Part shown: positions 34,079 through 38,348 of the stretch, one piece after another | How the letters are laid out: each line of letters starts with the position of its first letter | Numbering within the stretch: position 1 is the stretch's first letter | NCBI GenBank assembly: GCA_046329775.1 | Contig: JAXLTX010000003.1 | Span: 507,153 to 571,152 of the forward strand | Source: Chitinophagales bacterium | GTDB taxonomy: Bacteria; Bacteroidota; Bacteroidia; Chitinophagales; JADIYW01 | Reading direction: 5' to 3' | Length of the DNA: 64,000 nt | Program-made: the position numbers and the translations under genes | The notes under the pieces: generated by a model | Databases searched by the model: none | What the model was told of the DNA's origin: nothing | What the model saw: only the letters and a program-made list of their open reading frames with translations

Positions 34079-35314
34079 ATGAACTTTCTGGAAGTTTTAC
34101 AATTAGCCTACCGTTCGGTCAAAGCCAATATCGTTCGCACCGTGATTACCTGCTGTATCATCGGTTTCGGCATCATGGCGTTGGTAGGCATCCTGACTTC
34201 GGTAGATGGGCTAAAAAGCTATCTCTCCAAGAGTTTCAGCAGCATGGGCGCAGGTACGTTCAAGATACGCAACAGAAGCCTGGGGTTCAACCTCGACTCG
34301 GACAAGGATGCTCCGGTAAAGGTATTTAGAAGCATCACCTATCTGGAAGCCATGCAGTTCAAGGCAAAATTCAATGAGCGATACGCCACTTCCATTCAAT
34401 ACATAGGCAATCAGGGTTCTACGGTGAAATACAGCAATAAGAAAACCAACCCCAACATACTGGTTTTCGGCTCCGATGAGAATTACATCACCAACGAAAG
34501 CTACACCCTGCTTCAGGGACGGAATTTTACGGAGACAGAGTTAAAAACAGGCACCAATGTGGTATTGCTTGGATTTACGGTTGCCAAGAAACTGTTTGGA
34601 AAGCAGTATGACATAACAGACAAGATTGTCAGGATTGACGATGTTAAATTCAAGGTAATCGGCGTGCTGGATGAAAAAGGGTCCAGTTTCATCACAACAG
34701 ACAACCTTGCACTGATTCCGCTTTCAAAAGCTAGACAGCTATATCCGCAGAACAATCCTTCTTTTGTCATAAGTGTAAAGGGCAAAGATCCGGAAAACAT
34801 GACTCCGGTGCAGGATGAAGCCACCCTACTGATGCGCAATGTCCGCAAGTTGCATCCCGGTGAAGACGTCAACTTCGACCTGCTCAAGAGCGACAGCATC
34901 TCCGGCATGTTTGTAGAAAAGATGAGTTATGCCACCACTGCGGGATTCATCATCGGCATCATCACGCTGATTGGAGCTGCCATCGGTTTAATGAATATCA
35001 TGCTGGTGAGTGTAACGGAACGGACGAAGGAAATCGGAACATTGAAAGCCATTGGTGCCATGAATCAAACGATACGATTACAGTTCCTGCTGGAAGCCAT
35101 CGTCATCTGCCAGATGGGTGGAATCTTAGGTATCCTTTTGGGCATCATTGCCGGCAATGCCGTATCGCTCTCTATCGGCGGTACATTCATTATCCCATGG
35201 GTATGGATGTTGATGGGGGTTGTATTTTGCCTGGTGGTCGGGCTGGTTTCCGGCATCTATCCGGCCTTTAAAGCGTCGAAATTAAATCCGATCGAAGCAT
35301 TGAGATATGAGTAA
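34079..35314 (+). CDS. ABC transporter permease, MacB/FtsX family
   Basis: GIMALVGILT, IGAAIGLMNIMLVSVTERTKEIGTLKAIGA, YPAFKASKLNPIEALRYE. Confidence 0.95.
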   Translation: MNFLEVLQLAYRSVKANIVRTVITCCIIGFGIMALVGILTSVDGLKSYLSKSFSSMGAGTFKIRNRSLGFNLDSDKDAPVKVFRSITYLEAMQFKAKFNERYATSIQYIGNQGSTVKYSNKKTNPNILVFGSDENYITNESYTLLQGRNFTETELKTGTNVVLLGFTVAKKLFGKQYDITDKIVRIDDVKFKVIGVLDEKGSSFITTDNLALIPLSKARQLYPQNNPSFVISVKGKDPENMTPVQDEATLLMRNVRKLHPGEDVNFDLLKSDSISGMFVEKMSYATTAGFIIGIITLIGAAIGLMNIMLVSVTERTKEIGTLKAIGAMNQTIRLQFLLEAIVICQMGGILGILLGIIAGNAVSLSIGGTFIIPWVWMLMGVVFCLVVGLVSGIYPAFKASKLNPIEALRYE

Positions 35315-35646
35315 ATTGTCATCTTAAAAGTAAAAATGTGCCTTTTATTATTTTCGTTATTTCTTTTTTCTTTAAACTCACAAATAAATACATAACTGTC
35401 TTGAGATGCATTTGAGTTGTTGTAGATTCCGTTCCATTTATCGGTCAATTGAAAAGCCTCAAAGACTTTATTTCCCAAACGATTAAATATCTGCAAATGA
35501 TAGATATTTCAAATTTTTAAAAAAAATACAAACTATTTTAACAAACTAGGTGATATTGGTTTCAAAATATTATTGTGTTTAGACACATTAAAAATGAAAT
35601 AAAAGCCTCTAAACTAGATCCGATTGAAGCGTTGAGATATGAGTAA
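35270..35646 (+). repeat. Direct repeat of the permease 3' end (35270-35314 and 35602-35646)
   Basis: 39/45 nt identical. Copy 1 reads KASKLNPIEALRYE*, copy 2 KASKLDPIEALRYE*. The terminal TTGAGATATGAGTAA (15 bp) is identical. Confidence 0.9.
35319..35580 (-). pseudogene. Remnant of a T9SS type B (CHU_C / gliding-motility-associated) C-terminal domain
   Basis: LQIFNRLGNKVFE...WNGIYN...DSYVFIC, then after a frameshift IIKGTFLLLR*; upstream NNILKPIS fragment in another frame. Confidence 0.7.
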
Positions 35647-35651
35647 TTGTA

Positions 35652-35753
35652 TCGTGCTATGATCAATCGAGATGCACATATAAAATAAGGTTGTGTGCGA
35701 GATTATCCGTATTTTCTGTTCCATTCGCCAGATTCTAAACCATCTTTTAAGCG
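35652..35753 (-). pseudogene. Remnant of the C-terminus of a class I SAM-dependent methyltransferase
   Basis: RLKDGLESGEWNRKYG*SRTQPYFICASRLIIAR resembles the remembered family tail L..DL.SGEWD.KYG..RTQP.F.(G/C)ALRL(I/V).A; one in-frame stop. Confidence 0.5.
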
Positions 35754-35866
35754 CTAACATTTGATTTATATCGAATAAAAGCGTTAATATGTAATTACAT
35801 AATAAAATATTTTTTTTGCAATATTCATTTTTTAATATTAATATTGTACAAACTAAAATCATTCAC

Positions 35867-36232
35867 ATGAAAAACACATTAACAATTTCAATCTTTATTT
35901 TAGTTAATTTATTTGCAATGAGTAAAGAAAGTAAGTCAAATTATACAAAAAGAAAAGGACACTATGGTACTTGTACTCCAGTACCCGGCGATTGTCCTAT
36001 GCCCGAAATAGGTTGTTTTTCAGGCGGTGAACAATGCTTCGTAAAAGATTGCGAGTGTCCTTCATTTAGTGGATATACTACTCAATTATCATCACTGAGT
36101 GATACAGATAAATTAGCTATTGCTAAAAGGTTTGCAGAAAAAAATATGAAAGATGGAATGATTGATAATGAGAATGGAAAGAAAGAGTTAATAGAATTTG
36201 TTATCCAAACCATCAATTCATCTTTAAAATAG
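35867..36232 (+). CDS. Small secreted Cys-rich protein (121 aa)
   Basis: Sec-like leader MKNTLTISIFILVNLFA; C-x6-C-x6-C-x6-C-x4-C-x-C at residues 36-64. Start set at ATG 35867. Confidence 0.7.
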   Translation: MKNTLTISIFILVNLFAMSKESKSNYTKRKGHYGTCTPVPGDCPMPEIGCFSGGEQCFVKDCECPSFSGYTTQLSSLSDTDKLAIAKRFAEKNMKDGMIDNENGKKELIEFVIQTINSSLK

Positions 36233-36243
36233 TTTTTTTTGTA

Positions 36244-37398
36244 ATGTACTTATTAAATAGACTATCTTTTTTATACTTCTTTGGTATTTCCGCTACGCTA
36301 TTTAGTAAACAAAATTACGTTGAACTAAAAACAAAATATAGCGACTCTAAAATTGAAATTTCTCTCGGATCTCAAAGAATAATTAACGTAGGTAAGCCAA
36401 TCAATTTTACCCGTAAACTACATTACACCATAGATGATACCTCATTCATTGTATGGAATAATAAGCTGACAAATAAAATTGAATTTTATACTATTGAACC
36501 TTTCAAAATGATTGATTCAATAGATGTTAGTAATTTAATGTTGTCAGAAGACAATAATGTACTTGATATTATTCCCAACAAATCAACCGTTATTATTGTA
36601 ACTAAAAATTATTTACATATTATAGATCGAAAAGGAACTATTCTTTACAGCGAGAAAATAAATGATTACAACAACTCGAAACAAAAATATTATTATGGAA
36701 ATATTTACAACTGTTATGAATCGTATATATACGGAAATATTTTGTACATGTACGAATCATTTTATAAAGGTCCGCAAAATTTAGATTATTTTAACAAACC
36801 GATTGAGGTTAAATTTGATTTGGAAAATAAGACTAAAGTTTCCAATACAATTTACCAATCAAAATTACTGCAAAATAAAAAAATAAATTATGGATTGGTT
36901 AGAAATGCGTCAAAAATATCACATGATTCAATAGGGGTAATAACATTCCAAAATGATGCAAATATCTACCAATATAATTACGTAAACAATAAAATGGATA
37001 CTTTTGGTGGGAAATCAAGTTATCAAATTAAACCAATAGCTTCATTATCAAAAAAGTATTTCAAAGACCAGGAAATACAATTTAAACATTATTCACATCA
37101 GCCTTGGTATACTAATATTGTTTGGGATCCTTACAGAAAATGCTATTTTAGATTTTATCTTCAAGAAAGACTAAAAAATGATTCGACTCAAACCAATTCT
37201 TCTTTTCTTGACCGACATCTTATAATGATGTTATTTAATGATAGATTTGAATTAATAAATGAAAAAGATGTTGGACAATACAAACAATTCGGGTATGGTT
37301 ATTTGTTTATAACAAAAAATAATATTTATTTACAAGAAATAAGTAACTATATGAATAAAAGTGTAATAAGTCTTAAAGAAATACTGTTAAAAAAATGA
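36244..37398 (+). CDS. DUF4221-like 6-bladed beta-propeller protein
   Basis: WYTNIVWDPYRKCYFRF resembles the DUF4221 motif Y..L.YD.YR.VYYR; MMLFNDRFELINE; N-terminal hydrophobic leader. Confidence 0.65.
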   Translation: MYLLNRLSFLYFFGISATLFSKQNYVELKTKYSDSKIEISLGSQRIINVGKPINFTRKLHYTIDDTSFIVWNNKLTNKIEFYTIEPFKMIDSIDVSNLMLSEDNNVLDIIPNKSTVIIVTKNYLHIIDRKGTILYSEKINDYNNSKQKYYYGNIYNCYESYIYGNILYMYESFYKGPQNLDYFNKPIEVKFDLENKTKVSNTIYQSKLLQNKKINYGLVRNASKISHDSIGVITFQNDANIYQYNYVNNKMDTFGGKSSYQIKPIASLSKKYFKDQEIQFKHYSHQPWYTNIVWDPYRKCYFRFYLQERLKNDSTQTNSSFLDRHLIMMLFNDRFELINEKDVGQYKQFGYGYLFITKNNIYLQEISNYMNKSVISLKEILLKK

Positions 37399-37850
37399 AT
37401 AGGTATATTTTCCCTCTTCTGCTTCTGTTTAGTTCTTCTTTGATTAGCAAGGATTTTATAGATAGAGAAAAGAGAAAGAATATTGAGAATTATCTAAAGA
37501 ATGGTATAAAATGTATGGAAGACAAAGAATCTATTCATATTTATTTATTGCAATCTATAAAATGTGTTGGTTGCGCAGAGCACAATTTTGAGAATGTTAC
37601 TAAGAATGAAAATCCTAATATTAAGAAGCTTGCTATAGTTACAAGTCCAATAAAAAAAGATTTTCAAAGTATGATTACTAATATCCCGAATACAACTATT
37701 TATAATGATACTAGTTACATATATGGCAACTATGACATTTTTGTGAAAGATGATATTTTTGTAGATGTTAAGGCTGGCAAGATAGAAACCATTTTGTTAG
37801 TTTCATCCCATAAGTTTACTAAGTATCTTAGAAGAAAAGGTACTAAATAA
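37395..37850 (+). CDS. Hypothetical exported CxxC (thioredoxin-fold-like) protein
   Basis: Leader peptide; beta-strand IHIYLL followed by CVGC; 4-bp overlap with the propeller gene. Confidence 0.6.
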   Translation: MNRYIFPLLLLFSSSLISKDFIDREKRKNIENYLKNGIKCMEDKESIHIYLLQSIKCVGCAEHNFENVTKNENPNIKKLAIVTSPIKKDFQSMITNIPNTTIYNDTSYIYGNYDIFVKDDIFVDVKAGKIETILLVSSHKFTKYLRRKGTK

Positions 37851-37855
37851 AAAAC

Positions 37856-37874
37856 GCCGAACAGATTGTTCGGC
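37856..37874. terminator. Bidirectional terminator
   Basis: GCCGAACA-gat-TGTTCGGC with A/T tracts, between the cassette and rplI. Confidence 0.75.
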
Positions 37875-37901
37875 ATTTTATGTAATAAACATAGGGATTT
37901 A

Positions 37902-38348
37902 CTATTCAGCTACCACTTCAAATTCAATTTCAGCAGTAACTTCTTTGTACAAGTTAACGACAGCCTTGTGCGTACCCAGTTCTTTTACTTCACCTGTAAT
38001 ATGCACTTTTTTTCTATCAACAGTGAGGTCGAATTGTTTTTTCAACGCTTCAGCCACCTGAATATTGGTAACACTTCCGAACAATTTACCGGTAGTACCG
38101 GCTTTTGCCCCCACCACAATCTTAGATGTCTTCAACTTCTCTGCCAATACCTTATAATCTTCGATTAATTTGGCGATTTTAGCAGACTGTTGTTTTTTAA
38201 TCTCTTCATTGTGTTTTTTGTTCGACACGTTCGCTACCTGAGCGAAACCTTTTGGTATCAGGAAATTACGACCATAGCCCGGCTTTACGGTTACTACATC
38301 GAATTTGGTTCCTAAATTATCTACGTCTTTTAATAAGATTACTTCCAT
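37902..38348 (-). CDS. rplI: 50S ribosomal protein L9
   Basis: MEVILLKDV...VKPGYGRNFLIP...GKLFGSVT. Confidence 0.98.
   Translation of the reverse strand: MEVILLKDVDNLGTKFDVVTVKPGYGRNFLIPKGFAQVANVSNKKHNEEIKKQQSAKIAKLIEDYKVLAEKLKTSKIVVGAKAGTTGKLFGSVTNIQVAEALKKQFDLTVDRKKVHITGEVKELGTHKAVVNLYKEVTAEIEFEVVAE

Follow-up and report, generated by a model that had tools for sequence, protein, structure and literature searches.

A transcribed three-gene insert encoding a small cysteine-rich protein, a DUF4221 propeller, and a predicted thioredoxin-fold protein in a Chitinophagales bacterium

We analyzed a stretch of 64,000 nucleotides from a Chitinophagales bacterium (assembly GCA_046329775.1, contig JAXLTX010000003.1, positions 507,153 to 571,152; hereafter, the window) and found that it contains, between a permease gene and rplI, a cassette of three + strand genes: P1 (35867–36232; 121 aa counted from its ATG), P2 (36244–37398; 384 aa), and P3 (37395–37850; 151 aa). 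The genes are real and of the exported type; they are linked, co-diverge with one another, lie in an inserted segment, and are transcribed. P1 encodes a small cysteine-rich protein, P2 is assigned to the DUF4221 family, and P3 is predicted to adopt a thioredoxin (Trx) fold with an invariant cysteine pair. We propose, with moderate confidence, that the three products form a self-contained envelope module in which P1 would be a Sec-exported client, P3 its private thiol-disulfide catalyst, and P2 a platform that binds P1; the action of P3 on P1, the binding of P1 by P2, the redox direction, and the final role of P1 are what we infer here.

Three coupled genes and their products

An initial annotation of this DNA described three coupled genes, and the open reading frame (ORF) coordinates agree with it: 11 bp separate P1 from P2, and P2 and P3 overlap by 4 bp (ATGA). 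The ORF list opens P1 at an upstream in-frame TTG (35816); since the homologues all begin at ATG, we place the start at the ATG at 35867. The cassette is AT-rich, as the annotation had also said, with a G+C content (GC) of 0.24–0.32 in 300-nt windows across 35250–37950 and of 26.9% over the whole cassette, compared with 41.7% for the genome. The figure of ~53% that it gave for the permease gene was slightly high (0.42–0.50 measured), and the rplI-rpsR-rpsF genes lie at 0.38–0.40. At 27% GC, an ORF of 384 codons does not arise by chance, and all three ORFs are confirmed as real genes by their homologues, their synteny, and transcripts. The cassette is present in a single copy, and no paralogues of P1, P2, or P3 were found elsewhere in the genome (2.96 Mb in 15 contigs, 92% complete).

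The three N-termini each begin with a basic residue and continue with a hydrophobic stretch (leaders were judged by eye), and none of the proteins has a Cys within its first 25 residues, which bears out the annotated leaders without a lipobox Cys. Relatives at eight other loci (L007–L010, L014, L016, L084, and L086) do carry lipoboxes; the missing lipobox is therefore particular to the subfamily of the window.

P2 matches the Pfam family PF13970 (DUF4221) over profile positions 9–310 of 311 with 30.3 bits, above the curated cut-off of 23.4, so the DUF4221-like propeller of the initial annotation was rightly named. A six-frame search of the genome reproduced this result, with P2 as the only DUF4221 gene. 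Furthermore, a profile of the P2 subfamily found a single match in the PDB, namely 3s9j_A ("Member of DUF4221 family"; E 9.1e-5), which covers the C-terminal blades only. On sequence grounds, then, P2 is an exported-type member of this family of six-bladed beta-propellers, to which it is tied by the full-profile score and by the subfamily link to 3s9j, although it is very divergent (30 bits) and has a Sec-type leader in place of the lipoprotein leader of most relatives. Neither an NCBIfam match nor an NHL-repeat profile match was obtained for P2, which has no conserved cysteines. Only two close relatives of P2 (42% and 35% identity) were found among 5.8 billion proteins. A profile search of genome contigs with the close propeller alignment gave no match, and the alignment of eight propeller sequences is too divergent for use in searching.

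The AlphaFold2 model of P3, built from a nine-sequence alignment, has a mean predicted local distance difference test score (pLDDT) of 83 and a predicted template modeling score of 0.77, with the order beta-alpha-beta-alpha-beta-alpha-beta-beta-alpha. In it, a strand (47–52) is followed by C57-V-G-C60 at the N-terminus of helix 1 (58–71). A Foldseek search of the PDB with this model returned ResA, the M. tuberculosis DsbE and DsbF proteins, TlpA, and CcmG, followed by peroxiredoxins, at E ~2e-4; the matches include the TlpA-ScoI and TlpA-CoxB complexes. Because the TM-scores are only 0.45–0.5, the TlpA/ResA subclass is weakly assigned to P3. The model does allow us to predict confidently that P3 is an exported-type Trx-fold protein with a CxxC motif. 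C57 and C60 are the sole residues invariant across 13 P3 homologues. P98, at the place of the expected cis-Pro, precedes the strand 100–104 in the window, L001, and L002 and is replaced in L082, L084, L086, L007, and L009. The sequence of P3 found no match in PADLOC, nor in the PDB at E ≤ 10, and a Redoxin match came from one P3 relative only (E 0.21). A cytochrome c4 match (E 0.36) that appeared in the searches with P1 and P3 was dismissed as noise.

Variants of this protein are seen at other loci. Three cassettes from the genus of the window (L007, L008, and L009), placed at other loci than the one in the window, encode P3 homologues with C-N-C (CxC) instead of CxxC, and all three proteins are lipoproteins there. 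Two Trx-like paralogues, one with C-x5-C (~143 aa) and one with CGSC (~165 aa), lie downstream of DUF4221 at L010 (484–1403) and L016 (3353–4284), where the upstream peptide has 9–10 Cys.

P1 has a Sec-type leader, a basic stretch (KRK), and a mature length of 100 aa, with a core of six cysteines (C36, C43, C50, C57, C62, and C64) and a tail that is predicted to form a two-helix hairpin. Its relatives share the motif G-x-W/Y-x-T-C ... C ... P-x-G-C-F-x-G-G-x-Q-C ... C-x-C-P, followed by the tail. Four cysteines are invariant across members, and nearly all members have an even total of 4, 6, or 8. The Trp ahead of the core varies, with Tyr in its place in the window, and relatives carry CxC/CPC clusters (CECP, CKCPC, and CWCPC). 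In the AlphaFold2 model, the tail is predicted at a pLDDT of 78–88 and the Cys core at below 50 (40–48), so that no disulfide or knottin topology of the six conserved cysteines can be read from the model.

Two expectations about P1 were not borne out. The initial annotation likened it to NVEALA-type precursors; the sequence contains no NVEALA motif, and no match was found in Pfam or NCBIfam (E ≤ 1), PADLOC, or the PDB. It also anticipated hypervariable Cys-rich ORFs upstream of propeller homologues; the Cys scaffold and the tail of P1 are conserved within its family, and the cassette shows no variation among four metagenomes. P1 proteins with this tail form a very rare family. For P1 and P3, word-indexed protein searches retrieved nothing beyond near-identical copies, and the two families were reached only by synteny plus one exhaustive HMMER run, in which the P1 profile gave 12 matches among 1.84 billion representative proteins; of these, four were rows of the query itself and another was spurious. 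About 10 relatives of P1 come out of this search. We followed four new matches (P0010, P0012, P0014, and P0016), three of which belong to the same trio at yet further sites in their chromosomes; the contig of the fourth (L085) stops inside the gene directly downstream of P1.

Recurrence and co-divergence of the trio

Do these three genes also travel together in other genomes? Both close P2 relatives are flanked by a P1 homologue and a P3 homologue, and a metagenome scan based on P3 returned the same two organisms. Every relative that was reached from P1, P2, or P3, on contigs long enough, lies in the same trio. The order, the strand, and the tight coupling are kept in the window and at L001, L002, L082, L084, L086, L014, L007–L010, and L016, at a chromosomal site that differs from host to host, and the P2 and P3 genes overlap or abut in nearly all loci. 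The cassette proteins are conserved at 30–42% identity with invariant cysteines, and the GC of the cassette is below that of its flanks in 12/12 host loci.

Furthermore, pairwise identities among ten cassettes sort P1, P2, and P3 into the same four clades, with Mantel r values of 0.75 for P1/P2, 0.92 for P2/P3, and 0.73 for P1/P3 (p < 0.001). These shared clades and correlations indicate that the distributions of the three genes are not unrelated. The initial annotation had described DUF4221 propellers as companions of small Cys-containing proteins and of CxxC proteins and had named, beforehand, such an association as the test of this idea; the trio was found to recur and to co-diverge.

More distant DUF4221 genes, from three congeners as well as other Chitinophagales and Sphingobacteriales, have a small Cys-rich protein encoded upstream and a 140–190-aa exported protein (CxxC, CxC, or C-x5-C) downstream; the leaders in these loci are mostly of the lipoprotein type. 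Among 400 genomes sampled without bias from the phylum, DUF4221 occurred in 14, and the neighbors of 19 non-array loci were judged from ORF lists. A ~142–163-aa CxxC protein, mostly with a lipoprotein-type leader, lies downstream in 9/19, and the hidden Markov model of the P3 family also finds five of these nine; the baseline for an ORF of 130–200 aa with CxxC at residues 40–90 plus a crude leader is ~1%. A signal-peptide protein of 60–140 aa with 2–10 Cys lies upstream in 12/19, and the complete trio is present in 8/19. The upstream peptides of different lineages are unrelated in sequence, while P2 and P3 are conserved, and ten other such peptides gave no match in Pfam, nor did the upstream peptides match NCBIfam. 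In one locus (L014, 2665–3825, from a Chitinophagaceae metagenome-assembled genome), the DUF4221 gene is split into two ORFs of 110 and 245 aa, which may reflect a frameshift, a pseudogene, or an assembly error.

DUF4221 also occurs in a second, partner-free mode. Arrays of 2–5 lipoprotein paralogues were seen in three genomes (G290:C6:187490–193395, G302:C8:298679–303076, and G441:C22), where the lipobox supplies the single Cys of each paralogue and neither a peptide nor a CxxC partner is encoded within 1.5 kb. The propeller can therefore function alone, which raises the question of whether P2 is the center of the cassette: an enzyme or receptor for a non-protein substrate, with P1 as a small structural subunit (like the amine dehydrogenase light chain) or an unrelated neighbor, and P3 as an assembly factor, comparable to MauD for MADH or DsbL/DsbI for ASST. 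P2 is the largest and best-conserved partner, and the motif WDPYRKxYYRF together with Y289, D295, R298, R303, and D323 is invariant in eight divergent members, as might be expected of such a protein. On the other hand, P2 offers no conserved Cys for P3 to act on, a cofactor like tryptophan tryptophylquinone is unlikely since the Trp before the P1 core varies, and genes for cofactor maturation are absent; we regard this explanation as fairly unlikely. Its more specific form, in which P1 would be a cofactor-bearing small subunit like those of MADH or QHNDH, was rejected on the same variable Trp, the widely varying Cys patterns, and the missing maturation genes.

Insertion site, flanking remnants, and transcription

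We located rplI in 27/31 same-genus genomes and fetched the region from eight. The site is empty in 7/8 of these congeners: the permease gene and rplI are convergent and lie ~80–185 bp apart, with a homologous hairpin in the spacer. In the window, the distance from stop to stop is 2587 bp. The empty sites in the seven congeners indicate that ~35315–37850 is extra DNA and that the terminator is resident, on the side of rplI. The inserted segment (35315–37850; ~2.5 kb, GC 0.27) thus extends from the permease stop to the resident rplI terminator, a predicted hairpin (GCCGAAC-AGATT-GTTCGGC; 37856–37879, stem-loop 37856–37874) with a flanking A-run and T-run, which is bidirectional and also ends the cassette. 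The stop codon of P3 abuts this hairpin, and homologous hairpins adjoin rplI in all congeners. Both the horizontal acquisition of the module and its position next to the rplI terminator, as initially annotated, are supported by this comparison.

The same annotation placed the cassette between att-like scars and the rplI terminator, and a 45-nt duplicate of the permease 3' end is indeed present. The relic second copy (35602–35646, + strand) is identical to the functional copy 1 (35270–35314) at 39/45 positions and has the same TAA end. Copy 2 is closer than copy 1 to the permease ends of the congeners (TTAGATCCGATTGAAGCG...), which suggests that the current permease end arrived with the incoming DNA in a layered replacement. 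Apart from this duplicate, no regulator or operator repeats were found upstream of P1.

Could the cassette be an artifact of assembly? Its exact sequence occurs in at least 20 DNA runs from activated sludge or wastewater, from at least 10 studies. In run X1, one contig of 6430 nt spans 34600–38090 and crosses both junctions, and no variants were seen over 35406–38290 in four runs of four studies. As independent assemblies from four studies cross the junctions, the contig of this metagenome-assembled genome is not chimeric. Strain variants of runs X1 and X4 concentrate at 35263–35336 (12 substitutions), with the cassette invariant; four of the substitutions (35275, 35278, 35285, and 35293) turn the copy 1 base into the copy 2 base, which could be the result of recombination or gene conversion, with either the two copies or different strains as partners.

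Between the two permease-end copies, and converging on the permease end, lies a remnant on the - strand (35257–35496), a 79-aa ORF that retains only the C-terminal part of a type IX secretion system (T9SS) sorting domain. It matches Pfam CHU_C (6.8e-9) over profile positions 31–79 of 86 and, under the cut-off, the NCBIfam T9SS type B sorting domain (3.6e-6); it is the leftover of a convergent cargo gene. In two unrelated hosts, a convergent alpha/beta-hydrolase-like gene with a T9SS sorting tail follows the cassette (L001, 2718–4094, - strand; L009, 3052–4056, - strand). With the stump in the window added, T9SS cargo genes may be recurrent neighbors of the cassette. The identity of a minus-strand stump (35614–35862; 35652–35753) as a methyltransferase tail was unsupported, with no Pfam match at E ≤ 10.

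Contigs from four metatranscriptomes match the cassette without mismatch. P1 is covered in all four and is the most consistently transcribed part; an RNA contig (36215–36466) bridges P1 and P2, and P2 is covered in patches. No metatranscriptome contig covers 34900–35867, and two contigs from two runs begin at 35869 and 35871. The depth of a contig is a poor measure of expression, and carry-over of DNA into metatranscriptomes is possible; an RNA origin of the P1 contigs is supported by the fact that the adjacent permease end and remnants are uncovered while P1 is covered. It is plausible that a promoter lies directly upstream of P1, where a putative Bacteroidota-type -7 box, TAATATTG, with one mismatch to TAnnTTTG, can be read from the + strand at 35839–35846, 21 nt upstream of the P1 ATG.

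These observations bear on the simplest alternative, that the cassette is decaying or silent foreign DNA without a current function. The strongly atypical composition, the neighboring gene remnants (the C-terminal domain stump and the relic permease end), and the split DUF4221 gene of L014 would fit such DNA. Three ORFs that have stayed intact at 27% GC, the conservation of their products at the identities given above with invariant cysteines, the transcripts in four metatranscriptomes, and an identical sequence in so many runs and studies speak against it, and we consider this explanation largely refuted and very improbable.

A proposed thiol module and its place among known systems

In the mechanism that we propose, the horizontally acquired module would be transcribed from its own promoter, and Sec would export all three products. 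P1 would be the client or product, whose conserved, even-numbered cysteines would form disulfides, and P3 would set or shuffle their thiol-disulfide state. P2, made in step with P3, would hold P1 during or after folding, probably via the Cys core or the helical tail, and P2 and P3 would together act like a split version of the fused Trx-propeller proteins NHLRC2 and SOQ1. An action of P3 on P1 is the simplest reading because the sole invariant residues of P3 are its two cysteines and P1 is the only partner with conserved cysteines, P2 having none. Similarly, the translational coupling of P2 and P3, present in nearly all loci, and their co-divergence, the tightest of the three pairs, form the pattern expected of two halves of one machine. 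As for P1, we lean toward a disulfide-stabilized extracytoplasmic effector that serves in competition or as a ligand.

The thiol context of the host may explain why a catalyst would be carried along. DsbB, VKOR, and Thioredoxin_4 were not detected in the host assembly (92% complete), which contains one DsbD_TM protein (C11:153342–154001) and one DSBA-family match (C9:95745–96329). The initial annotation had the CxxC protein oxidize the peptide; the structural neighbors of P3, however, belong to the reducing ResA/TlpA/CcmG class, and a DsbD-like protein is the sole membrane partner found, so that P3 may act in either redox direction. The cassette would carry its own thiol catalyst because its hosts are without general oxidative folding driven by DsbB or VKOR. 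A comparable need is known from bacteroidetocin loci, which require their own thiol oxidoreductase, as Bacteroides lack general disulfide machinery (PMC6671954).

The same host inventory admits a reductive variant, by analogy with TlpA acting on ScoI and CoxB. In this variant, a TlpA/ResA-like P3, fed by the host DsbD-type protein, would keep the cysteines of P1 reduced for Cu or Zn binding or for a thiol relay, with P2 as acceptor or scaffold. The Foldseek matches of P3 (ResA, TlpA, CcmG, and DsbE at the top, with the TlpA-ScoI and TlpA-CoxB complexes among them), the presence of DsbD_TM where DsbB and VKOR were not found, and the CxC/CPC clusters of P1 relatives, which recall metal sites, would all agree with it. 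The number (2 to 10) and spacing of the cysteines in the upstream peptides, however, vary in a way more in keeping with structural disulfides than with a defined metal site, most Cys counts are even, and no His or Met ligands are conserved; the subclass of P3 is, moreover, weakly assigned at the TM-scores given above. We judge this variant to be improbable.

Could P1 instead be a weapon? In a toxin-immunity or bacteriocin module, an alternative raised in the initial annotation, P1 would be a secreted, disulfide-stabilized antibacterial matured by P3, with P2 as an envelope immunity protein. Genes for competition typically show such a patchy mobile distribution, host-specific sites, and, as here in every host, low GC; transcript coverage is best for P1, the peptides encoded upstream share no sequence relation across lineages while P2 and P3 are conserved, and a Cys peptide served by a thiol oxidoreductase of its own is already known from bacteroidetocin loci. 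Against this, mature P1 is 100 aa long with an ordinary Sec leader, and there is neither a double-glycine (GG) leader nor an ATP-binding cassette (ABC) exporter; the cassette offers no outer-membrane route; P1 is conserved, not diversifying, within its family, and the cassette is invariant across four metagenomes; and bacteroidetocin producers have no immunity protein, while DUF4221 arrays occur without a peptide. Such a module therefore appears quite unlikely to us.

Several observations also weigh against the envelope module that we propose. The Cys core of P1 has no confident fold in the model, and the contacts of P1 with P2 and with P3 are ones that we infer purely. The expected cis-Pro is kept in only some homologues of P3, some relatives have CxC or C-x5-C in place of CxxC, no thioredoxin-type match to P3 was found in Pfam or NCBIfam at E ≤ 1, and its nearest structures are reductases, not oxidases. 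The tandem DUF4221 arrays, from Bacteroidaceae-like genomes of one family, have no peptide or Trx partner, and two loci with DUF4221 and a CxxC protein (L015 and L017, the latter from Chitinophaga filiformis ZLX-1 with the motif CPSC) have no upstream Cys ORF of at least 65 aa. A transporter, a regulator, and an immunity gene are all absent from the cassette, which holds three genes only. Finally, our literature search found no paper naming DUF4221.

A bolder extension of the proposed module, which we offer only tentatively and regard as rather doubtful, is that the cassette represents an undescribed mobile, Sec-dependent system by which disulfide-rich proteins would be made wholly outside the cytoplasm. 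Here, a split Trx-propeller "foldase", a bacterial counterpart of NHLRC2 and SOQ1 that travels with a private client, would let Bacteroidota without DsbB or VKOR make Cys-rich effectors that they could not fold otherwise, and the clade of the window would be a rare form of it without lipoproteins, in which the client has acquired a helical tail for docking.

No description of the trio was found in the literature searched. DUF4221 propellers and their partners are present in several percent of Bacteroidota genomes, gut genera included, and no function or paper was found for them there either. The locus described here is a clean and minimal form of this arrangement, with three transcribed genes and a defined boundary of insertion, in an abundant wastewater host. 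It may serve as an entry point to the folding of disulfide-rich exported proteins in Bacteroidota without DsbB or VKOR, to the role of six-bladed propeller partners of thioredoxin modules, with a bearing on NHLRC2 and SOQ1, and to the question of whether the many unrelated small Cys peptides encoded upstream are a hidden class of secreted effectors.

How does the cassette compare with known systems? P3 resembles the TlpA/ResA/CcmG/DsbE group in being exported, in its predicted Trx fold with a CxxC that opens helix 1, and in its best structural matches. It differs in that no Redoxin, AhpC-TSA, or Thioredoxin profile matches it, in a cis-Pro kept in only some homologues, in relatives with other Cys spacings (CxC or C-x5-C), and in TM-scores of only 0.45–0.5. 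P3 probably works like this group, yet it is no member by sequence; P1 belongs to no described family. In the NVEALA/BF3164 neighborhoods of Bacteroidales, which are database families, the order is alike, with a small exported peptide, a six-bladed propeller lipoprotein, and a thiol protein, whereas the cassette has no NVEALA motif or Pfam match in P1, no NCBIfam match in P2, and no lipobox. A literature search found no paper naming NVEALA.

Fused proteins that combine a Trx-like module with a six-bladed NHL propeller exist in NHLRC2 (PMC6107167) and SOQ1 (bioRxiv 10.1101/2021.03.16.435614). Like them, the cassette brings together a Trx-like CxxC module and a six-bladed propeller outside the cytoplasm, and the co-divergence of its overlapping genes at r = 0.92 is the pattern expected of a split version. 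Unlike them, its modules are separate polypeptides, P2 has no NHL-repeat match, a third beta-stranded domain is missing, and a Cys-rich client is encoded upstream.

Bacteroidetocins (class IIf) consist of a small secreted peptide with four Cys, whose gene adjoins that of a dedicated thiol oxidoreductase required for activity; their loci include a GG leader, a C39-ABC exporter, and a five-transmembrane protein, and the producers are without any immunity protein (PMC6671954). The cassette shares with them a small Cys protein beside a dedicated thiol protein, in a host in which DsbB and VKOR were likewise not detected. It differs in its Sec leaders throughout, in a client of ~100 aa with a helical tail, and in a propeller as third partner; the set of GG leader, C39 ABC exporter, and five-transmembrane protein has no counterpart in the insert, whose three genes include no transporter. 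Three non-lipoprotein leaders, the very rare tail-bearing P1, a clean empty-site comparison, and transcription in situ in an abundant wastewater organism are particular to the window. The known kind, then, is a secreted Cys peptide with a dedicated thiol oxidoreductase, to which the cassette would add, as new elements, a propeller partner and a Sec-only route.

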